Below, in pieces: positions 7,871-41,846 of a DNA stretch of 64,000 nt (position 1 is its first letter; each line of letters opens with the position of its first letter). The stretch covers positions 1 through 64,000 of the IMG/VR virus record IMGVR_UViG_3300032731_000668, one strand, 5' to 3'. A program made the translations under genes and the position numbers. Source of the DNA: a virus (Duplodnaviria > Heunggongvirae > Uroviricota > Caudoviricetes). The notes below the pieces were generated by a model. That model saw only the letters and a list, made by a program, of their open reading frames with translations, did not search any database and had not been told where the DNA came from.

Positions 7871-7927
7871 GGTTTGCGTAGGTTGACTTAACAGGAAGCA
7901 TGATAGAATATTTAAAGGAAAATAAGA

Positions 7928-8092
7928 ATGGAAATCAATAAAATTTGTCCAAACTGTAAAACAGTAATGTTATGTTATGATGATTTTCATGAAACATTCT
8001 CACACTCTGAATATGATGAAACAATACCACATCATTTATATTGTCCAAAGTGCGGAAAAAGAATAAACTTGAAAAGAAATAAAGGAAAATAA
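7928..8092 (+). CDS. small zinc-ribbon protein (54 aa; CPNC...CPKC)
   Basis: ORF with AAAGGAAAA RBS; two CxxC pairs. Confidence 0.4.
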   Translation: MEINKICPNCKTVMLCYDDFHETFSHSEYDETIPHHLYCPKCGKRINLKRNKGK

Positions 8093-10594: not shown

Positions 10595-11359
10595 ATGATT
10601 AAATCTCAATTACTACCAATACTAAGACAAGCAGTAAAATATGCACCCAAAAAAGATAGATGGGGCGAAACAAAGATACCTATTTTAGCAAATGCAAGAA
10701 TTATGTCTAACAATGGGGTTTTAGCAGTTGAAACAACCAATTTAGAAAAACATTTTGTCGGACATATAAAAGGTTCTGATATTCCCAATACAGAATTTCT
10801 TATTGATGTCAGATGGTTAAAAGATATAATCAACGTAATGGATAAAAAAGTAGATATTGAATTTGAAATTTCTTATCGTTGGCTATCCAGTAATGGGCAT
10901 AGTAAACAAGAACTTACTTCACCAGTATTGATCGTTAAACAAAATAGAACTATATTTAATCTAAAAGTTAGAATGAACTTGGAAGATTTTCCTCTCCATC
11001 CAGTTGATAATAATCTTAAGTATGTTGAAGAAAATATTGATGGCAAAAATTTTACTGGTATACTTTATACTTATGACAATGAAGATGAATATCAAAATCC
11101 TTATAAAATTCATAAAGATAAGAGAAAAGAATTAAATAAACTACTTCCAAAATATTTAGTAATTAATGGTGCTATCGCTATAAAAACAGGAATATCATAT
11201 GATCTTATTCCCAATAATAAGCCCAATTCTTACGACTACAAATATTATGGAAATTACGATTTATCCTATGGTTCAAATATACAAGATGATGTTAGAAAAA
11301 TATCTGTAAATGAAATCAAAAATTATGAAGCAGTTGATACGAAGAAAGAGAGAAAATAA
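10595..11359 (+). CDS. hypothetical protein whose N-terminus resembles the DnaN clamp N-terminus (254 aa)
   Basis: LLPILRQAV...IPILANARIM...LAVETTNLEKHF is reminiscent of the DnaN LPILxNxLL...TDLE region; weak. Confidence 0.6.
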   Translation: MIKSQLLPILRQAVKYAPKKDRWGETKIPILANARIMSNNGVLAVETTNLEKHFVGHIKGSDIPNTEFLIDVRWLKDIINVMDKKVDIEFEISYRWLSSNGHSKQELTSPVLIVKQNRTIFNLKVRMNLEDFPLHPVDNNLKYVEENIDGKNFTGILYTYDNEDEYQNPYKIHKDKRKELNKLLPKYLVINGAIAIKTGISYDLIPNNKPNSYDYKYYGNYDLSYGSNIQDDVRKISVNEIKNYEAVDTKKERK

Positions 11360-12686: not shown

Positions 12687-13463
12687 ATGTTAACAAAAAC
12701 ATTAAGGTTTGATGAACAAGTTTTAACAGTATTAAGGTCAATGGATTGGCAAAATGATGGTGAATTAGGTATTCTTACTTGCGGTCAGTTAGATCGCAAA
12801 ATGTATACTTCGGTAAATAAGGCATTAGACGCAATGGGCGGTAAATGGAATCGAAAATTAGGCGGTCATGTGTTCAAAATCGATCCAAGAAATCAAGTTG
12901 AAGGTCTTTTAGATTCTGGCGAATTGTTAGTAGAAAAAGACGGATTTTTTGAAACTCCCACCGAAGTAATCGATCGAATGTTTGAAGTTGCCCCACCTCT
13001 TATTAATGAAAGAGTATTAGAACCTTCCGCGGGAATCGGTGCGATTGCATTGAGATTAATTGAAGTTAGATATAAAGCTACATACCTTAATTTGATTGAA
13101 AAGAATGCTGTCAGAGTTGATATTTTGAAAGAAAAATTTAATGAAGCATCCATTAGGTGTATGGATTTTTTAAGTTTGAATCCATTGACAACTAACCGAA
13201 AATTTGATAGAATCTATATGAATCCACCATTTGAAAATTTACAAGACATAGATCATGTACAACATGCATATAAATTTTTATCTGATAATGGCATTATGGT
13301 TTCTGTAATGGCTGAATCTGCATTTTTTAGAAGCGATAAAAAATCAGTTGCGTTTAGAGAATGGCTTACTGGATATAACGAAGAACTACCAGAAGGATCA
13401 TTCAAATCATCTGGGACAATGGTCAAAGCTAGATTGGTTGTAATAAAAAGTAAAACCACATAA
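12687..13463 (+). CDS. N6-adenine DNA methyltransferase (258 aa)
   Basis: SAM motif I LEPSAGIGA and catalytic motif IV IYMNPPF (NPPF). Confidence 0.85.
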   Translation: MLTKTLRFDEQVLTVLRSMDWQNDGELGILTCGQLDRKMYTSVNKALDAMGGKWNRKLGGHVFKIDPRNQVEGLLDSGELLVEKDGFFETPTEVIDRMFEVAPPLINERVLEPSAGIGAIALRLIEVRYKATYLNLIEKNAVRVDILKEKFNEASIRCMDFLSLNPLTTNRKFDRIYMNPPFENLQDIDHVQHAYKFLSDNGIMVSVMAESAFFRSDKKSVAFREWLTGYNEELPEGSFKSSGTMVKARLVVIKSKTT

Positions 13464-22143: not shown

Positions 22144-22719
22144 ATGGGGGTTATGGGAAACTATAAAATACAAGACAGCAAGTTTATTCATTGGGTGCTC
22201 GAAAACATTTCTTGGGATATTTTCAGATGGTTTTGTGATTTATTATTTTCAATTTGCTGTACTCAAAAAATTTTTATCTATCCAAATATTCAAAAATGGT
22301 TACTTGCAATGAATATTCCTATGGTTGTATCAATACTTGGAATATTTATTATTATTTTTGTTATTACTTGGATATTTTTATCGTTGGTTGAGTGGTTGTA
22401 TAAAAAAATTAATTTTATCTTATTTTTGAAAAAACAAAAAGAAATAGTAATAAATACTTGGAATCTAGTAAATATCTCAGTAGAAAATTCTTTGTCATTT
22501 TTACAAGGGGTATCTTATTCAAATGAACCAAGTTTACAAGAACAATGCAAAATAACAAGAAATAGCGGTAAAGAATTGATGGAATATTTTCAAGACAAAG
22601 ATAATGGACTGAGTTGTTTTATAGAGCAAAGAAGAATAAAACAGACGAATTCTATACGCAAATGCCCGATATTGAGGCAGAAATGCGCCTCTATAAAGAC
22701 CAGTTTCGCGGTAAGGTAA
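22144..22719 (+). CDS. membrane protein (191 aa, 2-3 TM)
   Basis: AAAAGGATAAA RBS; hydrophobic segments; first gene of the higher-GC island. Confidence 0.55.
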   Translation: MGVMGNYKIQDSKFIHWVLENISWDIFRWFCDLLFSICCTQKIFIYPNIQKWLLAMNIPMVVSILGIFIIIFVITWIFLSLVEWLYKKINFILFLKKQKEIVINTWNLVNISVENSLSFLQGVSYSNEPSLQEQCKITRNSGKELMEYFQDKDNGLSCFIEQRRIKQTNSIRKCPILRQKCASIKTSFAVR

Positions 22720-22722
22720 TTT

Positions 22723-23925
22723 ATGGCACACATCAATCTCGCTAATGCTAAAAAGGTAAAGAACGACGAATTTTATACGCAATATTTTGATATTCAGAAA
22801 GAAATCTCGACATATTTAGAACACAACCCTGATGTCTTTCGGGGTAAGACTGTGCTTTTACCCTGTGATGACCCTGAATGGAGCAACTTTACCAAGTTTT
22901 TTGCCCAAAATTTTGAGCGGTTCGGGTTGAAAAAACTCATCAGTACAAGCTACGCTGTAAATAGCAAAACCTATAAGGGCGGATACCAACCAACGCTCTT
23001 TGAAACAAGTGCCCTCCAATTTGACGAAAATAAAACTGTGGAAAATGGGAAAATTTTCACACTGACCCACGACAAGACAGGTGACCGCAAGGTTGATGTG
23101 AATGACCTAGAATGGCTCTATCTTAAGGGTGACGGCGATTTTCGTAGCGACGAGATCAAAAAGTTTCGTGACGAAGCCGACATCATCATTACTAATCCAC
23201 CATTTTCGCTTTTCCGTGATTTTTTGGCATGGATAATGGAGGCTGACAAACAATTTGTAATAATAGGTAACCTAAATGCCATTACCTATAAAGAGGTATT
23301 CCCGTTACTTAAAGAAAACAAGGTTTGGTTAGGTAATAATTGTAAAGTAAATGGTGGTGCAATGTTTTATGAGATACCAGAAGACATTGCTAACTTGGAC
23401 CAAGTTCGTGAAATAAGGACAAACGAAATTGGCAAGGAGGTTTATATTACCAGGGTACAAGGTGTTCGTTGGTTTACCAATCTCGACCATGGGCGTCTTC
23501 ATCAACCCTTACCACTAATGACAGAGTCAGAGGTAGTCAAGTTCGTAACGAAAAAGCCATTTGTTAAATATGATAATTACGATGCAATAGAAGTATCGAG
23601 AGTTAAAAACATTCCAAGCGATTACAACGGAGTAATGGGAGTACCGGTTAGCTTTCTCGATAAATACAGTCCAGAACAATTTAAAATTTTGGGGGCAACA
23701 CAAAGAGGTTGTCATGATGAATTCCCTGACACAAAAAAATATAATGACTATAGCGAAGTAAGACAAAATGGGGAAAATACAGGTTCTTCTGGCGGAAAAA
23801 CAAATGAAAATGGGAATTTAGTTGGTAATGACGGAAAAAAGAATTATTTCATAAATGAAGATGGCAGAATAATTCAATCTGTGTATCAAAGAATATTCAT
23901 CAGACATAGGAATAAAACAACATGA
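22723..23925 (+). CDS. N6-adenine DNA methyltransferase, gamma-class-like (400 aa)
   Basis: DEFYTQ (FxTP-like motif X), catalytic [14 protein letters not shown]; local GC about 45%. Confidence 0.85.
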
Positions 23926-25091
23926 AAACAATCTTAATAACTGACATTACTGTCAAAAATATCTGCGAAGGATTTGTCTATAACGAACTTGAGGGCAAAG
24001 GACTATTTGGCTTGTCTGGCAAGTTAACCATCCAGCCAGAGTATCAGCGTAACTATATTTATGCATCCGATGGTGGTAAAAAAGAAGTTGCGGTGATTGA
24101 ATCCCTGCTGAAAGGATACCCATTGGGCTTAATTTATTTTAACAAAGTGAGTGATGAAAAACTGGAAGTGCTTGACGGTCAACAACGTATAACCAGTTTT
24201 GGACGATTTGTAACTAACAAATTTGCTATAAAAGATGAAAATGGCATGGAGCAATATTTCAGTGGTATTGCGGCTGATAAGCAATCTAAGATCTTGACAA
24301 CGGAACTGCTTATTTATGAATGCGAAGGGATTGAAAGTGAGATAAAAGAGTGGTTCAAAACGATCAATATTGCTGGCATACCACTTAATGATCAGGAACA
24401 GCTGAACGCCGTGTTTTCTGGGTCATTCGTGACACTTAGTAAGGCGGAGTTTAGTAACAGTCAGAATGCCAATATCCAAAAATGGAGAGCGTATATTAGA
24501 GGCAGTGTCAATCGACAGCATTTATTGGAACGCGCTCTTGATTGGGTTAGCAAAGGCAACATTGACGATTATATGAGCCGCCATCGGTACGACAACAACA
24601 TTACAGAGTTAAAAACGTATTTCAACAGTGTAATTGATTGGGTTTCAAGCGTATTTGTTGATGTAGAGGGTGAGATGCGCGGATTGGAGTGGGGACGATT
24701 GTACGAAGAGTATCATAATACATCTTATGACCCTGCAAAGGTTTCAAAAGATGTGCAAAAACTTTATGGCGATCCGTATATTAAAAACCGTAAGGGTATT
24801 TTTGAGTACATTCTTGGCGGTTCAATTGATACAAAATTATTAAATGTCCGAGTCTTTGATGATGCAACCAAGAATAATGTTTATTCAACACAGACTGCTA
24901 AGACCGAAGCTAAAGGTGAATCAAACTGTCCGCTCTGTGCTATTGGATATGATGCCAACAAAAGTAAAATCTGGAAGTTGAACGAAATGGATGCCGACCA
25001 TGTATCGGCATGGAGCAAAGGTGGCGCAACAGATATTAGCAATTGTCAAATGTTATGCAAAACTCACAATAGGGCAAAAGGAAATAAATAA
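23922..25091 (+). CDS. DUF262 (DGQQR ParB-like) + C-terminal HNH nuclease, GmrSD/type IV restriction-like (389 aa)
   Basis: LDGQQRITS motif in the N-terminal domain; C-terminal CPLC...[12 protein letters not shown]...[13 protein letters not shown] motif. Confidence 0.85.
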
Positions 25092-25292: not shown

Positions 25293-25321
25293 TTGACAGG
25301 TTTTGAAATATATGATATAAT
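25293..25321 (+). promoter_or_regulatory. consensus sigma70-like promoter TTGACA-17-TATAAT
   Basis: TTGACA 25293-25298, TATAAT 25316-25321. Confidence 0.65.
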
Positions 25322-26099: not shown

Positions 26100-27203
26100 A
26101 TGAATAACAATATAGATACACAGAAAGTTAACAGATGGATTAGAAGAGCCGTAAGTGGTGTGGTTGTTTTAATCATACTAGTTGTTTTTTTGGCGAATTC
26201 GTTTGTTTTAAAACGTGTTGAGCCTACTGAAATGGCAATTATTACTAGAGGCGGACAATTACAAAGTGTAGTTGGTTCGGGTACATATACTCAGTTTGGT
26301 TTTTTGAAAAAATCTAAACTCGATACATTCTCGGTTGCTATTATTCCTTTGAATTCTACTGACCCCGAAGTTTTGACGAAACCAACAGACAACAGTAAGA
26401 ATGATGAAAGTTCCGTTGGTATGCCTGTTGGATTTGAAATTGTTGGCGATATTCAGATTCCCACTGATCCCATAACTCTGATGAATAATTGGGCAAGATA
26501 TGGAGTAATGTATAAAAATCCTGAAACTCTTGAAGAAAGAGTTGATAGTTTTACAAGAGAAGCTATGAAAGTTTGTGGTGGTGCATTCACTTTTTATGAA
26601 ATCACTGCCTTAAGACGTGTCGAGTTTGCTACCTGTATTTCTGATGCTGTTACAGACAAGGTTGAAAAAGAGTATAGCGTAAGGGTAACGAATGTTACAA
26701 TTGCTAATATTATTTTAAGTAATACAGTTCTTGAACGTATCAACGCAGTTATTGACTTACAACAGCAGGTGGACTTAGAAAAACAAACAGCAGAACTAGC
26801 TACTGCTACCGGTGAACGAAAAGAAGCGGAAAATACGGCTTCAATTCAAGCTACAATGGCTACAGCGATAGAACAAGCAAAACAAGACGCAATTCTTGCT
26901 GTCCAAGAAGCTATAAGTGTTGCCTCACGACAAGAAGTTGTTATTGCCAAAATAGACTTGATTGCATTACAACAAGATTTGGCAGACGAAGAACTCACAT
27001 TGGCAAAAACAAAAGCTGTTGAACATCTTTCTAATGAAGCTCGTATGGCTGAAATTTTGCAAGGAAGTCCTAACTATTACAGTTTTTTGGTCGCAGAGTT
27101 GAACTCAAAAGCATTACAGAATGTTGACAAATTAATTGTTTCAGATGAAGGAACCGCACCACAAATTGTTATGGGCATAGATACAGTATATTCAGTAAAA
27201 TAA
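26100..27203 (+). CDS. SPFH/band-7 (prohibitin/stomatin/HflK-like) membrane protein with coiled-coil tail (367 aa)
   Basis: N-terminal TM, then a band-7-like core (VEPTEMAIITRGGQL...), then an Ala/Gln/Glu-rich coiled coil; GC-richer than the phage backbone. Confidence 0.7.
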   Translation: MNNNIDTQKVNRWIRRAVSGVVVLIILVVFLANSFVLKRVEPTEMAIITRGGQLQSVVGSGTYTQFGFLKKSKLDTFSVAIIPLNSTDPEVLTKPTDNSKNDESSVGMPVGFEIVGDIQIPTDPITLMNNWARYGVMYKNPETLEERVDSFTREAMKVCGGAFTFYEITALRRVEFATCISDAVTDKVEKEYSVRVTNVTIANIILSNTVLERINAVIDLQQQVDLEKQTAELATATGERKEAENTASIQATMATAIEQAKQDAILAVQEAISVASRQEVVIAKIDLIALQQDLADEELTLAKTKAVEHLSNEARMAEILQGSPNYYSFLVAELNSKALQNVDKLIVSDEGTAPQIVMGIDTVYSVK

Positions 27204-28656: not shown

Positions 28657-28845
28657 ATGACTTATGTATATCAATGTAAAAAATGCAAAAAAGAATTTGA
28701 ACTTGTTGCTGGTTTTTTAACAATCTTATCATTAGAAAAACAATGTCCTCATTGTGGATCTAAAAAAGTGGCAAGAAAATTTGTTCCTATTGATTTTATT
28801 TTAAAGGGAAATGATTTTTATAGAAACAACAAAGAAGACAAGTGA
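28657..28845 (+). CDS. FmdB-type zinc-ribbon protein (62 aa)
   Basis: YQCKKCKKEF...CPHCGS pattern. Confidence 0.5.
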   Translation: MTYVYQCKKCKKEFELVAGFLTILSLEKQCPHCGSKKVARKFVPIDFILKGNDFYRNNKEDK

Positions 28846-30149
28846 ACATAGATCAAAAAATTATAAATTTTATTAAAGAGATAGAAAAAGATTTACGCAT
28901 TCCTGCATGTGTTCATAATAACTTTGACAATTTTGTACCCTATGAGACCCCTGTTTACTATTCTGGGCCATATTGGAATGATTTAGAAATTTTGGTGGCA
29001 ATTAAAACATTGATTTTGGGCGATTGGATTAGCGCAGGAAAGAATGTTCAAGAATTCGAAAAACAATTTGCAAAAGTTATTGATGAAAAATATGGAATAA
29101 TGGTAAACAGTGGTTCATCTGCAAACCTAGTAATGATTACAGCTTTAAAAAAATATTTTAATTGGAATGATGGTGATGAGATAATAGTGTCAGCAGTGGG
29201 GTTCCCGACTACAACCTCTGTTATTGTCCAAAACAATTTGACACCCATATTTATTGACATAGAAATGCAAACTCTAAATTTTGATTTGAATTTAATTAAA
29301 GAAAAAATTACCAAAAAAACAAGAGCAATATTCCTGTCCCCCGTTTTAGGCAATTCTCCCGATATCGATGTAATAAAAGAAATATGTATGAAGTATAACC
29401 TACAACTAATTTTAGATGATTGCGATTCTCTGGGAAGTAAATGGGATGGAAAATTTTTAAATAAATACTGTGTTGCTTCTTCTCATTCCTTTTATGCAGC
29501 CCATACAATTTCCACAGGAGAAGGTGGAATGATTGTTACTAGCAATGCGAAAATTGCTAAAATTGCCAGAAGTTTAGTGAACTGGGGTCGTGATTGCCAT
29601 TGTTATGGAAGTGAAGGATTAATTCCTGATGGGGCTTGCGGACATAGATTTTCAAATTGGCTCAGAAATTATAACGGGATTGTAGATCATAGGTATGTTT
29701 TTTCTAATATGGGATATAATTTCAAGCCATTGGATTTGCAGGGTGGTATCGGAAACGTCCAATTGACTAAACTAGAAGAAATATATCAAAAAAGAAATAT
29801 AAGCAAACAAAAAATCACCGAAATATTTAGTCGAATAGAGGGTGTAGATAACCCGATACAATTAAATAAGGCTAATACTATATGGTTCGGCACCCCTTTT
29901 ATCTGTCAAAATAAAAAATTAAAACAAAATCTTGTGTCATTTTTAGAAAGTAACAAGATTCAGACCAGAAATTATTTCGCGGGAAATATATTACTTCATG
30001 AAGGATATGAAACTTTAGGTAATTTCAATGATTATCCTAACGCAAATTTAGTGTTGGACTTAGTATTTTTTGTCGGGGCTTCGCCTCATTATAATGATAA
30101 AATATTTGACTATTTTAAATCTGTTTTGAAGGAATTTAAAAATGAATAA
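28842..30149 (+). CDS. DegT/DnrJ/EryC1/StrS-family sugar aminotransferase (435 aa)
   Basis: DGDEIIVSAVGFPTT...IFIDIE and SFYAAHTISTGEGGMIVT (PLP-lysine region) motifs. Confidence 0.85.
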   Translation: MNIDQKIINFIKEIEKDLRIPACVHNNFDNFVPYETPVYYSGPYWNDLEILVAIKTLILGDWISAGKNVQEFEKQFAKVIDEKYGIMVNSGSSANLVMITALKKYFNWNDGDEIIVSAVGFPTTTSVIVQNNLTPIFIDIEMQTLNFDLNLIKEKITKKTRAIFLSPVLGNSPDIDVIKEICMKYNLQLILDDCDSLGSKWDGKFLNKYCVASSHSFYAAHTISTGEGGMIVTSNAKIAKIARSLVNWGRDCHCYGSEGLIPDGACGHRFSNWLRNYNGIVDHRYVFSNMGYNFKPLDLQGGIGNVQLTKLEEIYQKRNISKQKITEIFSRIEGVDNPIQLNKANTIWFGTPFICQNKKLKQNLVSFLESNKIQTRNYFAGNILLHEGYETLGNFNDYPNANLVLDLVFFVGASPHYNDKIFDYFKSVLKEFKNE

Positions 30150-30840
30150 TGGCATTATTGTTCTTGGATATGGATTACTCGGAAAAGAAATAACAAAACA
30201 AACCGATTGGAACTATATAAGTCGCAAGGAACACGGTATCGATTTTAATAAAACTGATTGGTATCATCACATTCAACGTTATGATACAATTATAAATTGT
30301 ATTGCAAATACTAACACATATTCACACGAAAGAGAAGACCATTGGCCGACCAATTATATAAGCGTAATGAATTTAGTAGACTGGTGTAATGAAAATAATA
30401 AAAAAGCTATACAAATTTCTACAGACTATATTTACAGTGGGTCTAATCGTAATGCCTCTGAGGAAGACATTCCTCTACATAATAAAACTTGGTATACATA
30501 TACAAAACTACTTAGCGACGCCTATGTACAAGCAAGGGCAAAAAATTATTTGTTGATTCGAACATCTTTTAAGCCAACACCTTTTCCATACCCCGAAGCA
30601 ATTGTTACTCAGACTGGTAATTTTGATTATGTCGATAAAATATCAAAATTGATTATTGAACTTATTAATAAAAATGCTTTCGGTGTTTTTAATGTGGGAA
30701 CACGGAGGAAAACTATATATGATCTAGCAACTAAAACTAATCCAAATATTATAGGTGCATTTCGAATATTAAATAAAGAAATGCCAAGAGATGTAACAAT
30801 GAATGTTTCAAAAATGGAGAATTTTTTAAATGAAAGTTAG
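30142..30840 (+). CDS. RmlD-like dTDP-4-dehydrorhamnose reductase family protein, short form (232 aa)
   Basis: ISTDYIYSG (RmlD STDYVF motif), YTYTKLLSD (YxxxK), LLIRTSF. Confidence 0.7.
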   Translation: MNNGIIVLGYGLLGKEITKQTDWNYISRKEHGIDFNKTDWYHHIQRYDTIINCIANTNTYSHEREDHWPTNYISVMNLVDWCNENNKKAIQISTDYIYSGSNRNASEEDIPLHNKTWYTYTKLLSDAYVQARAKNYLLIRTSFKPTPFPYPEAIVTQTGNFDYVDKISKLIIELINKNAFGVFNVGTRRKTIYDLATKTNPNIIGAFRILNKEMPRDVTMNVSKMENFLNES

Positions 30841-31570
30841 CATAGCAATTCCAGTTTATGAAATGGGTGGAAGAGGTACAGAATTTTTAAAATACTGTCT
30901 TCGCTCTATTTTATTGCAAACGCATCCTGTGTATGAGATAGTCATCTCAGATCATTCAAAAAATGATGACATTCTTGATCTTTGTAGTCCATGGCCACCA
31001 AACGTAAAATATGTTCGAAATAAAGAAAATTACGGTGTTTTTGCGTCCAACATGAATAATTGTTTTAGTTATTGTACCGGCGATATTATTAAAATTATGC
31101 ATCAGGACGACTTCTTTTATAGAATGGATTCTTTATCGAAAATTGTAAACAATTTTGATTTAGATAAAGGTTGGTTACTAACTACATATTATCATTCTAG
31201 AAATGGGAAAGATCTTTTTAAATTACATACCCCAAGTATTAAGGAATGTCCTTTGTTTATTAATAAAATTGGTGCACCTACCTGCCTAACAATTAAGAAT
31301 GAAGATATTCTTTATTTTGATGAAAATTTAAAGTGGTATGTAGACAGTGATTACTACGTAAGGTTGTTGACAAAATATGGACTCCCTGTGATTTTAGAAA
31401 AGCCAACAGTGGTACAGCGATTATGGGAAGGACAGGTTACTAATACAATAATACATAAGGATGTGATTACAGAAGAAATATTGTATTTATATAAAAAGCA
31501 TGACGTAAAACTAGAAGACCTGACTGAAATAATAGGAAGACTTGGGTATTGTGAGGCATATGAAGATTAG
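30830..31570 (+). CDS. family 2 glycosyltransferase (246 aa)
   Basis: VSIAIPVYEMGGRG...ISDHSKNDD GT-A N-terminal signature; paralog of the next gene. Confidence 0.75.
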   Translation: MKVSIAIPVYEMGGRGTEFLKYCLRSILLQTHPVYEIVISDHSKNDDILDLCSPWPPNVKYVRNKENYGVFASNMNNCFSYCTGDIIKIMHQDDFFYRMDSLSKIVNNFDLDKGWLLTTYYHSRNGKDLFKLHTPSIKECPLFINKIGAPTCLTIKNEDILYFDENLKWYVDSDYYVRLLTKYGLPVILEKPTVVQRLWEGQVTNTIIHKDVITEEILYLYKKHDVKLEDLTEIIGRLGYCEAYED

Positions 31571-32258
31571 TATTGCGATTCCTACTTATGAAATGAGTGA
31601 TCGTGGAGTCGAATGTTTAGACTACAATTTTAAAAAAATTCACCAACAAACGTTCAAAGACTTCAACGTGATCATCTCTGATCATTCGAAAGATGATAAA
31701 ATTTTTCATTTATGTAATATGTGGGGCAAAAAATTGAATATCAAATATATCAAAAATGAAAAAGATAGAGGTTCGCTATCAAGTAACTTAAACAGTTGTA
31801 TAAAAAATTGTAGCGGAGAAATAATTAAGTTCATAATGCAGGATGATTATTTTTACCATAAAAATTCATTAGAAAAAATTGTAAATAGGTTTGGTATAGG
31901 CAAAAGATGGCTGGTGTCTTCGTATTTTCATACAAATGACAGAATAAAACTTTTTCGTTTGCATATACCTGAAATTAGTAAAGACATGCTTCTTATTAAT
32001 CGTATCGGAACCCCTACATGTCTTACTATAAAAAATAATATTGATATTAAATTTGACTTGAAATTAAACTGGTATGTAGATTCAGATTATTATACACAAT
32101 TATATAAAACATATGGTAAGCCAGTTATTTTAAGAGATCCAACTGCGGTACAACTTCTTTGGGAAGGCCAAACAACGAACACAATTATCAATGAGAAAAT
32201 TATTAAAAATGAAGAAATATATCTTATGAAAAAATATGGGGCATATAGAAATGGATAA
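31560..32258 (+). CDS. family 2 glycosyltransferase, tandem paralog (232 aa)
   Basis: ISIAIPTYEMSDRG...ISDHSKDDK; about 45% identical to 30830-31570. Confidence 0.75.
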   Translation: MKISIAIPTYEMSDRGVECLDYNFKKIHQQTFKDFNVIISDHSKDDKIFHLCNMWGKKLNIKYIKNEKDRGSLSSNLNSCIKNCSGEIIKFIMQDDYFYHKNSLEKIVNRFGIGKRWLVSSYFHTNDRIKLFRLHIPEISKDMLLINRIGTPTCLTIKNNIDIKFDLKLNWYVDSDYYTQLYKTYGKPVILRDPTAVQLLWEGQTTNTIINEKIIKNEEIYLMKKYGAYRNG

Positions 32259-32910
32259 AATTCAAATTCCTGAATTAACCCTTATCGCTGTATCATCTAT
32301 AAAAATAGATGAAACTATTTTGGCTTTACAGAAGAGTTATAAAGATATTTTATTTGGATCTATAAAACTAATTACACATGAACGCCCAGAAATTTTACCT
32401 AAAGAAATTAGTTTTGAAGAATGTCCTAAATTAGATGATATAAATAAATATAATCATTATGTTTTTATAGAATTAGGTAAACACGTAAAAACAAGTCATT
32501 GTTTATTAATCCAACATGATTCTTGGGTATTAAGCCCCAAGTTATGGGACGATGATTGGTTGCAATATGATTATTGTGGTAGTCCGTGGGAATGGAAAAC
32601 TAATTCATACCAAACAGATTATGGAGAACATGTCAGAGTAGGAAATGGCGGATTTTCTCTGAGATCTAAAAAGCTTTTAGATATACCTAAAAAACATAAT
32701 ATGTATCTAAAATCTGAGAAGGGGTGGAAAAACGAAGATGGACAAATTTGCGTTTATTGGCGAAAAGAATTATTAGATTATGGAATCAAATATGCACCCG
32801 TTGAAATAGCATCAAAATTTTCTTATGAAAATCCAGTTCCTGAGAATAACTTTGGGAAGATGAAAACTTTTGGATTTCATAAGAATTTAAATACAGGGAA
32901 TAAGAGATAG
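32236..32910 (+). CDS. hypothetical protein in the glycan locus (224 aa)
   Basis: ORF overlapping the previous stop; no confident motif. Confidence 0.55.
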   Translation: MGHIEMDKIQIPELTLIAVSSIKIDETILALQKSYKDILFGSIKLITHERPEILPKEISFEECPKLDDINKYNHYVFIELGKHVKTSHCLLIQHDSWVLSPKLWDDDWLQYDYCGSPWEWKTNSYQTDYGEHVRVGNGGFSLRSKKLLDIPKKHNMYLKSEKGWKNEDGQICVYWRKELLDYGIKYAPVEIASKFSYENPVPENNFGKMKTFGFHKNLNTGNKR

Positions 32911-32916
32911 GCCAAA

Positions 32917-33903
32917 ATGATTATTTCTAAAACAGTTTTTGTTCAAGTGGCAGGACAACGTTCTTATTATATTAATAAAGGATACAATCTGACGCCATAC
33001 ATGTACAAAAATAGAAAGGGGAAAATGGTAATACCCCGCGGAACAATTATTGAAGTAAGGGTAGACGACCTTCCGCCGCGAAGTTCAAGAAAAGTTTTAG
33101 CCCAATGCGATAATCCAAAATGTAAAAAAGAACGTTGGGTAGAATACGAAAAGTATACCTCTCTATGCCATAGATGCGCTCTACAAACAGAATCTTATAA
33201 AACTAATAATGGAAATGCAAATAGAGGTAAAAAAAGAACTGCTGGCCAAAAAGAAAGAAAGAGAAAACCAAACTATCTGGTTAGAGGCAAAAATAACATT
33301 AATTGGAATAAAAATATATCTGAAAAAGACAGGCTAAAAACAAACGAAAAAAGTAGGAATAGCGTAGAATATAGAGCGTGGAGATTGTCTGTTTTTAGAA
33401 AAAATTGTTATCAATGCCAAAATTGTGGGTATACCGGTAGAAAAATAAATGCCCATCATATAGAAAGTTATTTTACAAATAAAGACTTAAGGTTTGATGC
33501 TGACAACGGAATAGTATTGTGTACAAATTGCCACAAATTGTTTCACAGCACATATGGAAAAACAGGAAATCATAAGTACCAACTCGATAAATTTTTAAAA
33601 AATAATAAAAACAAAAAAGAATTTGTTAAGTTAAAATTTGATATTCATAAAGATACTCGCCAAGGAAGAAAAAATGTAAACAACAATGATTCCAGCATAT
33701 ATGTTGGTGTATCAAAAAATAAAAACAGAAAAAAATGGGAGGCCGGAATATACCATGATAAAATAAAATATTATTTAGGAATGTTTGAATATGAAGTTGA
33801 GGCGGCAATGGCCTATAATGAAGCGGCGTCAGAAATATGGGGATGGAAAGCAATCTTAAATAAAATAACAGAAGACGATATTATTAAATTATGGGAAAAC
33901 TAA
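32917..33903 (+). CDS. HNH homing endonuclease with C-terminal AP2 DNA-binding domain (328 aa)
   Basis: CQNCGY...HHIESY...NGIVLCTNCHKLFH HNH motif; YVGVSKNKNRKKWEAGIYHDKIKYYLGMFEYEVEAAMAYNEAA AP2-like. Confidence 0.85.
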   Translation: MIISKTVFVQVAGQRSYYINKGYNLTPYMYKNRKGKMVIPRGTIIEVRVDDLPPRSSRKVLAQCDNPKCKKERWVEYEKYTSLCHRCALQTESYKTNNGNANRGKKRTAGQKERKRKPNYLVRGKNNINWNKNISEKDRLKTNEKSRNSVEYRAWRLSVFRKNCYQCQNCGYTGRKINAHHIESYFTNKDLRFDADNGIVLCTNCHKLFHSTYGKTGNHKYQLDKFLKNNKNKKEFVKLKFDIHKDTRQGRKNVNNNDSSIYVGVSKNKNRKKWEAGIYHDKIKYYLGMFEYEVEAAMAYNEAASEIWGWKAILNKITEDDIIKLWEN

Positions 33904-34625
33904 TGCCTTCTATTGCTTTTCAAACATCGTGTTACGAAAAATCATATAAACATTTACTTAAAAATGGAGTTCTAAATCACTATCTTTCATTATTTCAAGA
34001 TATTGATTTTGAAGAAAAGACGGTTATAGTAAATAATGTTTCAGACCATAATAATATCAAATCCTTATTTAAAAATTTCAATAATATCGATTTTATTTTT
34101 TCTGAAAAAAATCCAGAAACAGTTTTAAGTTTTTTCAATTTATCTTTGTTGGATTTTCAGATAGGATTATATTATTCTATTCAGCATTTTACGGGAATTT
34201 ATTATACACAATGCGATTACTTGTTTCATGTTAGTGAAGATTGTGGGATCGATAATCTTGATTCTAACTTTATAAAAGAATCTGTAGAAATGCTAGAATC
34301 AAATGAAAAATATATTATTGCTATGCCGAGATGGTGTGAAGACGACAACGCAATTGAAAAAACTGAACCGGAGAGTGATAAATTTTTTATACAATATGGA
34401 TTTACTGATCAAATATATATTATAAAAACAAAAAAATTCAAAGAAGATATATACCATTATAGCCACCCTATGTCTGAAAGATATCCTAAGTATGGTGGCG
34501 AATGCTTTGAAAAAAGAATCGATTCTTTTATGAGATGCAATCAACATTATGGAGTTGTACATAAAAATTATATTTATGACAGCAAACATTATGATGCAAT
34601 AATAAAACAATATAAGGAGATATAA
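33891..34625 (+). CDS. hypothetical protein in the glycan locus (244 aa)
   Basis: ORF overlapping the previous stop. Confidence 0.55.
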   Translation: MGKLMPSIAFQTSCYEKSYKHLLKNGVLNHYLSLFQDIDFEEKTVIVNNVSDHNNIKSLFKNFNNIDFIFSEKNPETVLSFFNLSLLDFQIGLYYSIQHFTGIYYTQCDYLFHVSEDCGIDNLDSNFIKESVEMLESNEKYIIAMPRWCEDDNAIEKTEPESDKFFIQYGFTDQIYIIKTKKFKEDIYHYSHPMSERYPKYGGECFEKRIDSFMRCNQHYGVVHKNYIYDSKHYDAIIKQYKEI

Positions 34626-34628
34626 AAA

Positions 34629-35978
34629 TTGAAAAATAATAATCCATACGGAATGAAAGTTCCAGAATCTTTTTTTGTTGTCTCTAATTGGAATAACGAT
34701 GTTTCTTGGGTAGAAAAATATACAGATAACTATATTATATATGATAAAAGTAACACGTTGCCAGCCAATGATAGAACCATTAAACTAAAAAATGTTGGCT
34801 ATAATGTTTATGATATGGCTCATTTTATTGTCAACAATTATGATAATCTCCCCGAACTAACTGCCTTTCTTCAGGGAAATCCCTTTGACCATTGCAAGAA
34901 AGAAACATTCGATAGGTTGATTTATAACACATGTTTTACTCCACTTGAAGATTATACAGATGTGCCAGAATCAAACGCCCATATAAAAGATGTTGACGGT
35001 GGCTATATGGAAATTAATAATTCTTGGTATTTCAGAACGCATAGACAAGAACATGGTGCCGAAGTTGAAAAATATGTAACATCATATAATCGATTTCTAG
35101 ATGAAATATTCGAAAGTCCAGAGCATTTAAAATGGATTAGGTTTGCGCCTGGCGCGCAATATATTGTACCAAAAGAAAATATATTGTTTTATAGTAAAGA
35201 ATTTTATAGAAAATTGATGAGGTATGTTGACTATCATAGAATACCGTCGGAAGGATTCGCTTTAGAACGAGCAATGTATTATATTTTCACTAATAGATGG
35301 AGAGAAAGAATGAATGATGAGAAAAAAGAGTTAAATGAATTAGACATATTGGCAAGAAAGTATGGGACAGATAAAAGAACCAACGACACACTCCCAAGCA
35401 TTTATCATGGGTACACAGATACTTATTATAATTATTTATTTCCCGGAAAACTTGGGATAAAGAATCTGTTAGAAATTGGTGTAAGTAAAGGGTCATCTCA
35501 TTATATGTGGGCAGATTTTTTACCTAATGCTATGATTTATGGAATCGATAATTTTTTAGATCCTTCCTGTACTGTCAGTAAAGAGGAACTTGAATCAAAT
35601 CCACGAATAAAGATTATTGTTGGCGATCAATCAGATAAACTTGTTTTGAATAAATTTAAAGAAATTCCGTTAGATGTTATAATAGATGACGGTTCTCATT
35701 TTTCCTGGGATCAACAAAGAAGTTTCGATGTTCTTTGGGACTTTTTATTGCCAGGAGGATATTATTTTTTTGAGGACTTGGGGGAAAGTTTTAATAATGA
35801 CTTTAGAGAATTTGAGGATATGCGTTCTGCCACCGTTAGATGGCTACATACAATGAAAAAAGGAAAGGTTCCGTTTTCATATTATACTAGAGAAAGCAAG
35901 ATGGAAAGAATTTTTAAAGAGATTCTATCAGTAAAAGCTTTTGGCGAACTTGTTGTAATCCAGAAAAAGATTATATGA
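34629..35978 (+). CDS. two-domain protein: N-terminal domain paralogous to 36565-37212, C-terminal class I SAM methyltransferase (CmcI/TylF-like) (449 aa)
   Basis: LLEIGVSKGSS...IIDDGSH SAM-MTase motifs; N-domain shares LPELTAFLQGNPFDHCKKETFDRLIYNTCFTPLEDY with the 36565 ORF. Confidence 0.65.
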   Translation: MKNNNPYGMKVPESFFVVSNWNNDVSWVEKYTDNYIIYDKSNTLPANDRTIKLKNVGYNVYDMAHFIVNNYDNLPELTAFLQGNPFDHCKKETFDRLIYNTCFTPLEDYTDVPESNAHIKDVDGGYMEINNSWYFRTHRQEHGAEVEKYVTSYNRFLDEIFESPEHLKWIRFAPGAQYIVPKENILFYSKEFYRKLMRYVDYHRIPSEGFALERAMYYIFTNRWRERMNDEKKELNELDILARKYGTDKRTNDTLPSIYHGYTDTYYNYLFPGKLGIKNLLEIGVSKGSSHYMWADFLPNAMIYGIDNFLDPSCTVSKEELESNPRIKIIVGDQSDKLVLNKFKEIPLDVIIDDGSHFSWDQQRSFDVLWDFLLPGGYYFFEDLGESFNNDFREFEDMRSATVRWLHTMKKGKVPFSYYTRESKMERIFKEILSVKAFGELVVIQKKII

Positions 35979-36568
35979 ATAAAAAAGAAGTATTAGAACA
36001 TGCATTGTCGTTTAAGTATGGCGGGATGTTGGAAGTTGAATTGGGTTATGTCTATGACATATGCGCCAACAAAAACGTTTTAGAGTTGGGAAGCATGGTA
36101 GGCATGAGTAGCTATGTTATTGCTTCTGTCGCAAAAAGTCTTTCATGTGTTGATGTATGGTCTGATACATGGGAACATCTAGCACACGATCCAATACAAC
36201 AAAAGATTTACGAGCAATTTACAGGTGTTATTTTATCTATGCATGAAAGTTTTAAAAGAAACTGCAAAACTTTTATTGATTCTAAAAAAATTAGAATGTA
36301 CAAGGGAAATACAAGAGAGATGGTCGATAAATTCTTAGATGAAAGCTTTGACGTTATTTTAATAGATGCCGACCATTCTTATGAAGGTGTATTACGTGAT
36401 TTTAATCTTTATCAAAATAAAATAAAAGATAATGGATATATTGTTTTTCATGATTATGGTGATTCTATGTGGACAGGAATTGCCCAATTGGCAAATGAAA
36501 TGGCTTCTCAAAATAAGATAAAAATAGTGGGAAGAGTTGAAAGAATAGGAGTGTTTAAAAAAATATGA
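35975..36568 (+). CDS. class I SAM-dependent O-methyltransferase (197 aa)
   Basis: VLELGSMVGMSS (motif I) ... ILIDADHSYEGV ... IVFHDY. Confidence 0.75.
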   Translation: MNKKEVLEHALSFKYGGMLEVELGYVYDICANKNVLELGSMVGMSSYVIASVAKSLSCVDVWSDTWEHLAHDPIQQKIYEQFTGVILSMHESFKRNCKTFIDSKKIRMYKGNTREMVDKFLDESFDVILIDADHSYEGVLRDFNLYQNKIKDNGYIVFHDYGDSMWTGIAQLANEMASQNKIKIVGRVERIGVFKKI

Positions 36569-37212
36569 AACAACCAAAAGCTAAAATAATTATAAGTCGC
36601 TTCAAAGAGGATTTTGATTGGGTAAAAGAATATACCGAAGATTATCTTATATATAATAAAGGTGAGCCTATTGATGATCCACATATAATAAATACAAAAA
36701 ATATTGGAGGAAATCAAAGAGATATTTTTAAGTTTATCCATGATTTTTATGATGACCTACCCGATCTGATGGCTTTTATGCAGGCATATCCATTCGACCA
36801 CTGTAAAAAAGAAACGTTTGACAAACTAATTTATAACGAGTGTTTTACTTCGCTTGAGGACTATGGGGTAATACCCGCAAACGCATATGAAAAAAGAGAT
36901 CACGATGGCGGGTTCCTGGAAAGAAATAATAGCTGGTATATAGAAGCCAACAATGCAACCTACAATGTTGGTTGTAAATATTCTTCTTTTGATCAGTTTA
37001 TGGAAAAATTCTTTTCAAACTATAAAACAGGTGCACATGTTAGATTTGCGCCAGGTTCTCAATATATTATAGAAAAAAAACAAGCGTTACATTATCCAAA
37101 AATATTTTGGAGAAGTTTAATGAATGAACTTCCGGAGAACTTTATGTCTGAAGCACATATTATTGAAAGATCTTTATGGACGATACTGCAATGTGGCTTA
37201 ATAATGAGGTAG
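36565..37212 (+). CDS. hypothetical protein paralogous to the N-domain of 34629-35978 (215 aa)
   Basis: Shared conserved block ...AFMQAYPFDHCKKETFDKLIYNECFTSLEDY. Confidence 0.55.
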   Translation: MKQPKAKIIISRFKEDFDWVKEYTEDYLIYNKGEPIDDPHIINTKNIGGNQRDIFKFIHDFYDDLPDLMAFMQAYPFDHCKKETFDKLIYNECFTSLEDYGVIPANAYEKRDHDGGFLERNNSWYIEANNATYNVGCKYSSFDQFMEKFFSNYKTGAHVRFAPGSQYIIEKKQALHYPKIFWRSLMNELPENFMSEAHIIERSLWTILQCGLIMR

Positions 37213-37215
37213 ATT

Positions 37216-38142
37216 ATGAATTATAAAGAATATAGACCAGGCGTACACAAATTATTACGTCATTTAGGACATTTAGATTCCATTGTTAAAGGAGTCCCCG
37301 TAGCCCCAATTCATATTTCTGTTTGGCCAACCAATAAATGTCAATTAAATTGTGATTATTGTTGTTGTAGAAACACAATGCGAAATGATTCTGAGCTAGA
37401 TATCGAGCTATATAAAAAGGCATTGCTTATTTTTTCAAAATATGGGACAAAGGCTATAGAAATGTCCGGTGGGGGCGAACCTCTTTTATGGAAACATATA
37501 GACGAAGGAGTTGATTTTGCACATTCGATTGGGATGAAACAATCTTTGATAACTAATGGACTTGCCCTAGCGGATACATCCGTAGACACTTTACGCAAGT
37601 TTGAATGGATTAGGATTAGTGTTCAATCGGTAATTCATGCAAAAAAGATAGACTATGATTCCATACCAGTAAAAACCAGTTTATCATATATGGTTTCTAG
37701 TAATATTTGTTTATCTGATTTAATGGATCTACATGAATTTTCTAAAAGTATAAATATCCCAACGAGAATAGCTGTAGTTCGCCCGTGTTCAAAAGAAAGA
37801 GTAAGTGAAATAGAAAATATTGTTGACAATTTAGGGGCACCGGTTTTCTTTTCTAATAAAAAGTTAGGCAAGCCTAAAGGATGTTACATGGCATGGATAC
37901 GTGCCGCAATAGATTGGAATGGCAACTTTTTTCCGTGTCCTTCGATTCAATTAAATAAAGAGAACGAAGGATTTATTCCCGACAGTTTTATCCTATGCAA
38001 CATTAAAAATATAGAAAAGTGGATATTAAATAACTCCCCGCATGATTTAGGATATCAATGTTCATTTTGTAATTGTGGCAAAGAAGAAAATGATTTTATA
38101 CATGAATTATTGGAGGACACTATAGATGCCGATTTCGTTTAA
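37216..38142 (+). CDS. radical SAM enzyme with Cys-rich C-terminal (SPASM/twitch-like) region (308 aa)
   Basis: CQLNCDYCCC (CxxxCxxC) cluster; glycine-rich GGGEPLL; extra C-terminal cysteines. Confidence 0.8.
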   Translation: MNYKEYRPGVHKLLRHLGHLDSIVKGVPVAPIHISVWPTNKCQLNCDYCCCRNTMRNDSELDIELYKKALLIFSKYGTKAIEMSGGGEPLLWKHIDEGVDFAHSIGMKQSLITNGLALADTSVDTLRKFEWIRISVQSVIHAKKIDYDSIPVKTSLSYMVSSNICLSDLMDLHEFSKSINIPTRIAVVRPCSKERVSEIENIVDNLGAPVFFSNKKLGKPKGCYMAWIRAAIDWNGNFFPCPSIQLNKENEGFIPDSFILCNIKNIEKWILNNSPHDLGYQCSFCNCGKEENDFIHELLEDTIDADFV

Positions 38143-38773
38143 ATTAGATGGCTCTTTTTATGATGAAGACTATTTTGAAAATGGAAGAGCCACCAAAAAA
38201 AGTTGGTATACAAACTATCGTTGGTTGCCGCAAAGAAGTTTCCGAGAAGCATTCGTCTATCTTGACTATTTAAAACTAGATAAAGACAGTTATGTTTTAG
38301 ACTATGGTACAGCGAAGGGTTTTTTGGTAAGAGCTTTTCGTGAATTAGGTATAAAGGCTGATGGTTGTGATATTAGTAAATACGCACTATCATTTGCTCC
38401 AGAAGGATGTTGGAATTGCTCAGACTTATCACAGTGGAAAAATCGTAATTATTCCCACGTTGTTGTCAAAGATGTTTTTGAACACCTAAATGAAAGTCAA
38501 TTAGAAAGCACATTTGATCAATTGTCTAAAATTTCATTAAAAATGATGTGTGTTATTCCAATGGGAGATAATGGTACTTACAGAATAAAAGAATATCATA
38601 CAGATGTATCGCATCTAATTGCAGAGAATGAATCTTGGTGGCGCAATAAGTTCTATAACTCAGGATGGAAAATTATTGGAGAATCCTATTATGTCAAAGG
38701 ACTAAAAGATAACTGGATTTATATTCCTGAAGGAAATCGTGTTTTTGTGTTGGAGAACAATGATAAGAAATAG
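38126..38773 (+). CDS. class I SAM-dependent methyltransferase (215 aa)
   Basis: VLDYGTAKGFLVRAF...GCDIS motif I / post-I. Confidence 0.7.
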   Translation: MPISFKLDGSFYDEDYFENGRATKKSWYTNYRWLPQRSFREAFVYLDYLKLDKDSYVLDYGTAKGFLVRAFRELGIKADGCDISKYALSFAPEGCWNCSDLSQWKNRNYSHVVVKDVFEHLNESQLESTFDQLSKISLKMMCVIPMGDNGTYRIKEYHTDVSHLIAENESWWRNKFYNSGWKIIGESYYVKGLKDNWIYIPEGNRVFVLENNDKK

Positions 38774-41831: not shown

Positions 41832-41846
41832 GGAGTATACTAATAT

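Follow-up and report, generated by a model that had tools for sequence, protein, structure and literature searches.

What is the function of a phage gene pair in which an adenine methyltransferase gene runs directly into a gene for a GmrSD-like nuclease? Such a pair lies in the 64,000-nt stretch of Caudoviricetes DNA analyzed here (positions 1 to 64,000 of IMG/VR record IMGVR_UViG_3300032731_000668; "the window"). The original prediction regarded the pairing as atypical for restriction-modification (R-M) and offered two readings, either Type IV exclusion of phages with modified DNA alongside a separate anti-restriction methyltransferase or a novel R-M-like pair. We found that the two-gene unit is a phage-borne copy of a very widespread and strongly conserved R-M cassette, which is near to the second of these readings. 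The first gene (M; positions 22,723 to 23,925) encodes ORF1, a predicted EcoRI-family N6-adenine DNA methyltransferase of 400 amino acids (aa). The second (R; 23,922 to 25,091) encodes ORF2, a 389-aa protein with a DUF262 domain (a ParB/Srx-like NTP-binding domain), a helical middle region, and a zinc-finger HNH nuclease domain. Both genes, like all other features reported here for the cassette, are on the plus strand. Their translational coupling, already proposed, is borne out by an ATGA start/stop overlap (23,922 to 23,925) in which the R start codon (ATG, 23,922 to 23,924) overlaps the M stop codon (TGA, 23,923 to 23,925). An AGGA Shine-Dalgarno-like site can be read from the sequence within the 3' end of M (23,908 to 23,911), 10 nt upstream of the R start, and the M-R junction is identical or similarly short in most related loci. 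Given the M-then-R order and the overlap, synthesis of the nuclease would depend on prior translation of the methyltransferase.

We examined the two proteins with profile searches and alignments of homologues, and the domain matches of both were far above chance level. ORF1 matched the EcoRI_methylase family (PF13651) from end to end (E = 4e-119; 398 bits against a cutoff of 26.4; 1 to 344 of the 345 model positions) and was also matched over its full length by the MTase_II profile of PADLOC (E = 1.6e-87). The DEFYT motif (residues 15 to 19; 22,765 to 22,779) is conserved, with D15, E16, F17, T19, and Q20 invariant across 81 close homologues and the longer NDEFYTQ block (residues 14 to 20) invariant or nearly so in the family. 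The catalytic motif IV, TNPPF (residues 157 to 161; 23,191 to 23,205), is invariant or nearly so in both methyltransferase alignments, and CDDP at residues 48 to 51 is invariant in the family alignments. The prediction that ORF1 is an N6-adenine methyltransferase is confirmed at the sequence level, and the protein is a full-length member of the EcoRI family. A sequence search against solved structures returned nothing significant for either protein. We also scanned 502 kb of host flanks plus the window for depleted palindromes. GGCC (which contains no adenine), CTAG, and ACGT had the lowest values, and CTCGAG was found at an observed/expected ratio of 0.5 in a scan that had no cassette-free control for comparison.

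ORF2 contains a DUF262/GmrSD_N domain at residues 36 to 165 (24,027 to 24,416; PF03235, E = 5e-19). Within it, the predicted DGQQR motif (residues 85 to 89; 24,174 to 24,188) is conserved among 76 diverse relatives, over which residue conservation was scored: D85, G86, and R89 never vary, and at least 90% of the sequences retain Q87 and Q88. The Q42-R43 pair (24,045 to 24,050) is invariant or nearly so. The middle region (residues 166 to 329; 24,417 to 24,908), which belongs to no Pfam family and is helical according to the modeled secondary structure, has conservation values of 0.68 to 0.90 per 20-residue block and no indels in 88 sequences. The C-terminal HNH domain (residues 330 to 389; 24,909 to 25,088) was matched by PF01844 at residues 354 to 389 (E = 6e-8). 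Its catalytic residues D359 and H360 (24,996 to 25,001) are present in at least 90% of sequences and invariant, respectively; C336 is also invariant, and C339, N374, and C379 are kept in at least 90%. C375, read in the window copy and not flagged as conserved, completes an apparent four-cysteine zinc site. ORF2 is therefore a DUF262-HNH protein as predicted, but its likeness to GmrSD, BrxU, and SspE ends there. The C terminus is of the PF01844 type, the DUF1524/GmrSD_C profile (PF07510) had no match in ORF2, and the protein has 389 aa, compared to about 560 to 770 aa in its solved relatives. The profile search detected no DNA-binding modules of the NUMOD/AP2 type in ORF2 either, and this, together with the fixed methyltransferase partner described below, ruled out a free-standing HNH homing endonuclease.

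The distribution of the two genes bears on the reading of ORF2 as a modification-dependent excluder of modified competitors and of ORF1 as an independent anti-restriction enzyme. Relatives of the nuclease are encoded in at least 579 species genomes according to a genome scan, the cassette is present on about 40 viral contigs, and the protein searches returned family sequences in the thousands. Carriers include bacteria, DPANN archaea, plasmids, and phages, and the same M-then-R pair sits amid unrelated genes in Anaerolineales chromosomes and in Moraxella and Enterococcus plasmids. Cultured carriers include Moraxella osloensis NBRC 115781 (plasmid pSKB0120-6, AP031478.1) and Enterococcus faecium BN83 (pBN83-1, NZ_CP142416.1), as well as Pediococcus, Leuconostoc, and Arthrobacter with plasmid-borne copies. 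Counting only loci with room for an upstream gene, an EcoRI-family methyltransferase gene lies upstream of R on the same strand at 66 of 68 genomic and 34 of 36 viral loci; of the four exceptions among these 104 loci, three are contig ends or a breakpoint. What had been called atypical is, in this nuclease family, the norm. The reverse does not hold: M occurs without R at 19 of 62 viral loci (31%), where ordinary phage genes come next. The pairing is retained down to about 34 to 35% nuclease identity, always with the same methyltransferase family. This one-sided linkage, in which R is almost never found without M but M is often alone, fits R-M rather than a Type IV nuclease next to an unrelated methyltransferase.

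Linkage that survives between phyla and at nuclease identities as low as 35% would not be expected of two independent functions. The reading frames overlap, and in 96 to 98% of loci the nuclease is tied to one methyltransferase family. The pair is also stable in bacterial chromosomes and small plasmids. At one locus (L212), a true GmrSD gene (GmrSD_N plus GmrSD_C) adjoins the cassette as a separate gene; the same locus has a NUMOD4/HNH_3 gene inserted between M and R. Together with the lack of DUF1524 and the short length of ORF2, these observations make the Type IV reading very improbable.

A candidate target recognition element is located at the end of ORF1, where residues 325 to 400 (23,695 to 23,922), following a conserved PEQFKILG block, form a hypervariable region that is gappy in alignment. 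We distinguished at least 19 unrelated classes of this C-terminal module (32 to 83 aa), carried on M cores that are 83 to 88% identical; all classes end in Y-x-R-[IL]-[FL]-I. In L112 and in L117 to L124, site-specific inversion exchanges the corresponding part of M. This shufflon consists of 18- to 25-nt inverted repeats and a tyrosine recombinase and yields three in-frame alternative modules, with both orientations occurring in nature. Just 8 of the 91 loci have it; these belong to a single viral or integrative subgroup, and the window is not among them. The AlphaFold model of ORF1 had a confident core and pLDDT values of 30 to 58 in the module segment, too low to place the module in the fold or relative to DNA. 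By analogy, we propose that the module determines sequence specificity; its diversity could instead be driven by pressure from phage inhibitors.

The nuclease shows the opposite pattern. It is about 80% identical across phyla; synonymous sites are saturated, and GC3 ranges from 0.23 to 0.74. Relative to the window copy, R had a dN of 0.12 and M one of 0.32. Conservation is uniform and free of indels in R, whereas variation in M occurs in blocks. R identity was nearly the same in pairs sharing a module class (0.807) and in pairs with different classes (0.803), no column of the R alignment tracks module class, and identical R proteins occur with different modules. Type III Res subunits are not known to reach such conservation, so a Type III-like division of labor accounts only in part for the roughly 80% cross-phylum identity. 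We also found a natural M-R fusion (L209), in which a catalytically degenerate M domain is joined to R in a code-4 organism. An artifact of stop-codon read-through was rejected for this gene, as the junction is stop-free in any code; its in-frame TGAs all fall at conserved tryptophans. The fusion represents one lineage with an inactive-looking methyltransferase domain and possibly has a different mode of action.

These data bear on a conventional alternative, in which ORF2 is an independent, sequence-specific DUF262-HNH endonuclease of a classical Type II system, ORF1 methylates the same site, and the module is unrelated to specificity. ORF2 is already filed by PADLOC under a Type II restriction enzyme model (REase_II, a REBASE-style profile; full-length match, E = 1.4e-79), a label that fits an independent enzyme equally well, and ORF1 has its MTase_II match. 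Moreover, the genes are separate, a C-protein-like HTH gene lies upstream in some loci, a constant nuclease would suit a single constant recognition site, and M.EcoRI, on which the methyltransferase family was founded, is itself part of a classical Type II system. Yet inverting part of M beside an unchanged R would be lethal if specificity were affected and pointless if it were not. At least 19 unrelated modules exist with zero covariation in the nuclease, and M outpaces R in evolution, opposite to what Type II systems usually show. The exclusive partnership of R with one methyltransferase family down to 35% identity and the fusion to a degenerate methyltransferase domain also count against this alternative, and the conserved NTP-binding DGQQR pocket is foreign to classical Type II enzymes. 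We consider the classical arrangement unlikely, if still a serious competitor.

We therefore lean, by a modest degree and on comparative sequence evidence, toward a complete R-M cassette in which M picks the target and R serves as a generic effector that methylation holds back. The most basic tier of this model, self-marking by M and cutting of unmarked DNA by R, is well supported. ORF1 would methylate adenine N6 at target sites, marking the carrier DNA (phage genome, chromosome, or plasmid) as self, and the DUF262-HNH protein would cleave DNA without this mark. The nuclease itself probably does not read DNA sequence; the methyltransferase would select the target through its exchangeable module, and the near-invariant nuclease would work with, and probably bind, the methyltransferase core. 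The ParB-like DGQQR pocket would then be the switch, dependent on NTP, by which the HNH domain is licensed. Target choice by M is suggested by the slow evolution of R, the at least 19 modules, the lack of covariation in R, the shufflon, the fusion, the persistent partnership, and the precedent of programmed inversions in other systems (see below). Labor would then be divided as in systems of Types I and III, but between different parts. More tentatively, the cassette may represent an undescribed architectural class, in which a nonspecific ParB-like NTPase/HNH subunit is directed by an EcoRI-family methyltransferase with a plug-in module. With similar caution, the module of such a class might be swapped by recombination (in some lineages by the shufflon), with DUF262 serving the restriction of unmodified DNA.

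How did the cassette come to be in this phage? Its GC content is 38 to 39%, compared to 31% in the phage flanks. Immediately upstream lies a degenerate N-terminal remnant of another EcoRI-family methyltransferase (22,608 to 22,724; plus strand; about 39 codons), in a frame different from that of ORF1. The remnant ends exactly at the ORF1 start codon, has a stop codon just upstream of it, and aligns to about residues 4 to 49 of the family with 49 to 58% identity (tblastn; E values down to 2e-9, computed against a small searched region). Insertion or replacement of a cassette may have left it behind as a scar. There was no corresponding 3' methyltransferase remnant downstream of R, and no other locus examined had a 5' methyltransferase fragment upstream of the cassette. 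Exact look-ups of the flanking genes found no cassette-free variant of the phage; its ligase had no relatives in IMG/VR, and megablast found no match among INPHARED phages. Horizontal acquisition by the phage is the best explanation for these features.

For the phage, the likely role would be to shield its DNA from the many hosts with the same cassette and to cut unmethylated DNA of the host or of competitor phages; this is pure inference. Selfish persistence of the cassette is possible too. In the strong form of this view, the cassette is a mobile addiction module, or it targets EcoRI-family methyltransferase genes in the manner of a homing element; it persists since its loss is lethal and brings no benefit to the phage. 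This would agree with the foreign GC content, the truncated older 5' end exactly at the junction, the extreme mobility across phyla and replicon types, and the known selfish behavior of R-M systems. All contigs of the phage population that cover the region nevertheless carry intact and identical cassettes, and since the remnant is confined to the window, nothing points to targeted homing. We regard a passenger without benefit as rather improbable; this view is about what the phage gains rather than how the cassette works, and it can hold together with the explanation favored above. Self-protection by a Z-genome was also considered, because ORF 57,843 to 58,910 matches the PHROG "2-aminooxy adenylosuccinate synthetase" and was read as PurZ-like. 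This idea was dropped: against archaeal-type short PurA the ORF scored E = 1.5e-67, against verified PurZ structures no better than about 1e-10 to 1e-11, and no DatZ/MazZ-type genes were seen near it.

If M supplies the specificity, a family filed as ordinary Type II would operate in the manner of Type I/III systems while sharing none of their parts, the known ways of building R-M systems would be broadened, and the current picture, in which DUF262 proteins sense modified DNA, would change. A plug-in module of 30 to 80 residues that retargets both methylation and cleavage beside a small constant nuclease would also appeal to engineers. Given the abundance of the family, annotations would be affected in many genomes and metagenome-assembled genomes. 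Both halves of an arms race are visible as well, as many phages have the methyltransferase only and some, including the present one, have the whole cassette.

In the full-text literature (with most subscription journals and REBASE outside its scope), we found no description of a DUF262 plus PF01844 HNH nuclease with an EcoRI-family methyltransferase and no recognition motifs for such methyltransferases. Among known systems, the cassette resembles GmrSD, BrxU, and SspE in the N-terminal DUF262 domain with its DGQQR nucleotide pocket and differs in the much shorter protein and the PF01844 zinc-finger HNH domain in place of DUF1524. Unlike those enzymes, which attack modified DNA, ORF2 is implied by its obligate pairing to spare methylated DNA. 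With classical Type II systems it shares adjacent, separate methyltransferase and endonuclease genes that are both matched by R-M profiles. The likeness to EcoRI extends to PF13651, shared by ORF1 and M.EcoRI, and to a two-gene M and R cassette on plasmids and mobile elements. R.EcoRI, however, is a PD-(D/E)xK enzyme that reads GAATTC unaided, whereas a DUF262-HNH protein takes its place here, next to a methyltransferase with interchangeable C-terminal modules.

In HsdS, Type IIG, BREX, and DISARM inversion systems, restriction and modification share one specificity element. Programmed inversions have been reported for Type I HsdS and for Type IIG, BREX PglX, and DISARM DrmMI methyltransferases, and surveys of such inversions do not mention EcoRI-family methyltransferases (PMC7672463, PMC9881135). 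The shufflon has the same layout, with short inverted repeats inside the specificity gene, silent alternative 3' segments in opposite orientation, and a tyrosine recombinase close by, and it likewise produces alternative in-frame alleles (PMC7672463, PMC9881135), but the gene switched here encodes a Type II-like methyltransferase of the EcoRI family, and the nuclease has a gene of its own. A close parallel may be with Type III systems (Mod/Res, e.g., EcoP15I), which also have two genes, a methyltransferase that can occur and act alone, and specificity or expression subject to phase variation; here, too, the methyltransferase subunit would carry target recognition for both modification and restriction, and the restriction subunit would be a nucleotide-dependent effector. 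The parts differ, as ORF2 combines a ParB/Srx-like DUF262 domain with HNH instead of an SF2 helicase-type ATPase with a PD-(D/E)xK nuclease, and the methyltransferase comes from the EcoRI family (PF13651), with a short C-terminal module as its variable element.

M, an EcoRI-family N6-adenine methyltransferase (22723-23925, + strand, 400 aa), and R, a DUF262-HNH nuclease (23922-25091, + strand, 389 aa), lie where the original prediction had placed them and are coupled, as it proposed. The two overlap by ATGA, and the window sequence has an AGGA site 10 nt 5' of the R start. In profile searches, PF13651 (EcoRI_methylase) matched M over its full length (E = 4e-119), and R comprised PF03235 (GmrSD_N/DUF262, residues 36-165) and PF01844 (HNH, residues 354-389). 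The PADLOC profiles for Type II MTases and Type II REases matched M and R, respectively, the latter over its full length (E = 1.4e-79). [quoted passage not shown] When R was aligned with 76 relatives (34 to 65% identity), the residues of the nucleotide pocket (Q42-R43 and D85-G-Q-Q-R89), the HNH site (D359-H360 and N374), and cysteines C336, C339, and C379 were invariant or nearly so, and both modules therefore look functional. C375, the fourth Cys of an apparent zinc site in the window R, was not among the residues flagged as conserved.

Relatives of R number in the thousands. The best 120, at 82 to 88% identity, are spread over Anaerolineae, Bacteroidota, candidate phyla, and other groups. 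When each species was represented by a single genome, relatives were encoded in at least 579 species, among them a Pacearchaeota metagenome-assembled genome, and further matches occur on about 40 IMG/VR contigs and 110 plasmids. The M-then-R pair sits amid unrelated housekeeping genes on Anaerolineales chromosomes, and a Moraxella plasmid of 9 kb and megaplasmids of Enterococcus faecium also carry the cassette. Considering only loci with room for a partner, M lay upstream of R on the same strand in 66/68 genomic and 34/36 viral loci. The pairing, initially regarded as atypical, is thus fixed and widespread, and these counts also reject a homing endonuclease unrelated to M, the alternative raised with it. 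Two of the exceptions (L059 and L120) are truncated where their contigs end, a third (L115) has a synteny break exactly at a recombination repeat (see below) with a silent module kept, and only L064 has the nuclease and no partner in view. Conversely, M occurs without R in 19 of 62 viral loci, where it is followed by ordinary phage genes (polymerase, terminase, and chaperonin); these phages fit a familiar anti-restriction strategy. Because R hardly ever occurs without M and M is often alone, this one-sided linkage reads as the signature of restriction-modification. The partnership is exclusive and old: an EcoRI-family methyltransferase gene still lies upstream when nuclease identity has dropped to 34 to 35%. 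We consider it highly probable that the cassette is a restriction-modification system in which methylation by ORF1 labels DNA as self and unlabelled DNA is cut by ORF2.

At some loci (L037, L042, L063, L078, and L086), defence-island-type cargo separates M from R: RhuM, Bro-N, an OLD-like AAA_15/TOPRIM ATPase, DUF2130, and Schlafen/AlbA_2 with HATPase_c_4. Similar cargo is known from within Type I loci and defence islands. Locus L101 (5615-9161) has two tandem full-length EcoRI-family methyltransferase genes followed by one nuclease gene. In a distant relative of the cassette (L212, 625-5548), M and R have a homing-type endonuclease gene (NUMOD4/HNH_3) inserted between them, and a canonical GmrSD (GmrSD_N plus GmrSD_C) follows R after one small ORF, such that both DUF262 nuclease types coexist as separate genes.

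The two proteins differ in conservation. The dN to the window copy was 0.12 for R and 0.32 for M; R was conserved evenly from end to end without indels, whereas M varied in blocks (residues 81-120, 201-240, and most of all 321-395). Conservation is inverted relative to classical Type II systems, with R evolving more slowly than M. This inversion does not fit a classical Type II system, and neither do the modularity of M, the indifference of R to the M module, the switching of modules by DNA inversion, the natural M-R fusion (all described below), or the exclusive, old partnership described above. Synonymous sites were saturated in most comparisons, with R third-position identity at about 50%, and the GC3 of R ranged from 0.23 to 0.74, following host GC (r = 0.61). 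The roughly 80% identity of R across phyla therefore reflects long-term purifying selection and not just recent spread. Where computable, R dN/dS was about 0.06. Simultaneous constraints (NTP, DNA, partner, and self-association) explain this extreme conservation only partly.

Much of the variation in M falls in an exchangeable C-terminal module of 32 to 83 residues that follows a conserved P-x-Q-F-x-I-x-G block. Among 199 M sequences, there were at least 19 unrelated module classes, all of them with a Y-x-R-[IL]-[FL]-I tail, and M cores that are 83 to 88% identical can bear modules of only 19 to 28% identity. R ignores module class. Within the main clade, R identity was 0.807 between members of the same class and 0.803 between different classes; the adjusted mutual information between R columns and module class had a maximum of 0.19 and a mean of 0.012; and L121 and L122 have identical R proteins and different module classes.

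Site-specific DNA inversion (a shufflon) switches the module at 8 of the 91 loci, and these 8 belong to a single viral or integrative subgroup. The shufflon repeat is 18 to 25 nt long, encodes QFEILG, and recurs in inverted orientation once or twice downstream, and a tyrosine recombinase gene follows R. Inversion in silico left the methyltransferase intact and gave each locus three alternative modules, which fall into classes known from unrelated loci. The module expressed in L117 is silent in L121 and vice versa, the two loci having opposite module orientations and nucleases that are 98.7% identical. A complete shufflon locus, L124 (5506-10143; also L112 and L117-L123), contains an HTH_3 regulator, M with the internal repeat, two silent inverted modules, a Bro-N-like gene, R, and the tyrosine recombinase. 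In L115 (6940-9173), the M core is absent and a silent inverted module, the Bro-N-like gene, R, and the recombinase are kept; synteny with L124 begins exactly at the outer repeat, and L115 either arose by recombination or reflects an assembly that broke at this repeat. In the inversion systems of Type I, Type IIG, BREX, and DISARM, restriction shares its specificity element with modification. Surveys of programmed inversion report switching in Type I HsdS, Type IIG, BREX, and DISARM methyltransferases (PMC7672463, PMC9881135) and make no mention of an EcoRI-family cassette.

Nature also provides a fusion of the two proteins. In P0179 and P0392 (688 aa, on two contigs), an EcoRI-family domain is joined to DUF262-HNH by a linker of about 25 residues; P0391 is a truncated third example. 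The organism uses genetic code 4, the in-frame TGAs all fall at conserved R tryptophans, and the junction contains no stop in any code. The methyltransferase motifs are degenerate (NDEFYTQ to NNLFASL, CDDP to CNAG, and TNPPF to TFPSF), and the 9-kb fusion locus (L209, fusion at 6001-8067) has no second methyltransferase. The fused domain has apparently been kept for something other than methylation.

The window itself is phage-like, with every long ORF on one strand, a GC content of about 30%, and no tRNA genes. It carries genes for a sliding clamp, an ATP-dependent ligase, an integrase, and a BCS1-like AAA protein, together with a long cluster for sugar modification. Metagenomic contigs as long as 168 kb contain the same sequence, and INPHARED yielded no close relative. 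The cassette has a GC content of 38 to 39%, versus 31% in its flanks. Immediately upstream, in another frame, 22608-22724 corresponds to a degenerate 5' end (~45 codons) of another EcoRI-family methyltransferase gene, stopping exactly at the M start codon; no matching 3' fragment was found downstream of R. We infer that this remnant is probably the scar of an earlier methyltransferase mostly displaced by the complete cassette. Where the next ORF begins, about 200 nt past the R stop, lies a perfect sigma-70 consensus (25293-25321; TTGACA, 17-nt spacer, TATAAT, and an extended -10 TG), the sole 12/12 match within the 4.7 kb scanned, which suggests that a new transcription unit starts right after the cassette. 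Just 3' of it are genes for a Band_7/SPFH-family protein (26100-27203) and an ATLF-like metalloprotease homologue (anthrax lethal factor family, PF07737; 27598-28365). Two further DNA methyltransferase-like ORFs, one N6_Mtase/MTS-like and resembling giant phage protein domains (12687-13463; phrog_9133 and phrog_15406) and one N6_N4_Mtase (61108-61836; PF01555, E = 1e-29), indicate a phage that invests heavily in DNA methylation. The sugar-nucleotide and glycosyltransferase cluster (28842-48754) is about 20 kb, unusual in size for a phage, and includes a DegT aminotransferase, an RmlD-like protein, several GT2 and GT1 enzymes, an epimerase/dehydratase, DUF3431 plus Methyltransf_24, and DUF5672; it may act on DNA, the capsid, or the host surface. 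Inside the cluster, a 328-aa ORF (32917-33903, equivalent to L137 13818-14804) has weak HNH and AP2 matches in a homing-endonuclease-like architecture. A full DNA polymerase III beta-clamp homologue (6860-7870) is accompanied by a shorter ORF (10595-11359) with a weak beta-clamp N-domain match below Pfam's cutoff. A phosphoribosyltransferase gene (57310-57843; PF00156) adjoins a short adenylosuccinate synthetase gene (57843-58910) that matches PHROG 1211, read as PurZ-like. The synthetase matches archaeal-type PurA (E = 1.5e-67) far better than solved PurZ (about 1e-10 to 1e-11); the two are probably purine-salvage auxiliary genes and not a 2-aminoadenine pathway.

How the nuclease finds its target is a separate matter. 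We give an even chance to a mechanism in which M would recognise the target through its exchangeable module, R would be a generic effector acting together with the M core, and the DGQQR pocket of R would serve as an NTP-controlled switch. Such an arrangement would account for the harmless swapping and inversion of specificity-like modules, for the lack of covariation between R and these modules, for the attachment of R to a single methyltransferase family, and for the value of fusing a dead methyltransferase domain to R. Work is shared in the same way in Type I and Type III systems; here the arrangement would be built from different parts. In this phage, the cassette could shield phage DNA from the many hosts that have a related cassette and cleave host or rival DNA that is unmethylated, and it may also simply persist selfishly.

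No description of methyltransferase-guided restriction by such a cassette was found in the openly searchable literature, which excludes REBASE and most subscription journals, and the system may already be known. Of the "GmrSD-like nuclease" originally predicted, the DUF262 part and the DGQQR and HNH motifs stand, but membership of the GmrSD family is rejected: GmrSD, BrxU, and SspE have a DUF1524 nuclease domain, whereas R has a classical zinc-finger HNH and does not stand alone. A Type III system is likewise rejected, as there is no helicase-type Res. At the level of its genes, the cassette fits the formal definition of a Type II system, and existing profiles already class it as one, but its behaviour across genomes points to methyltransferase-guided restriction.
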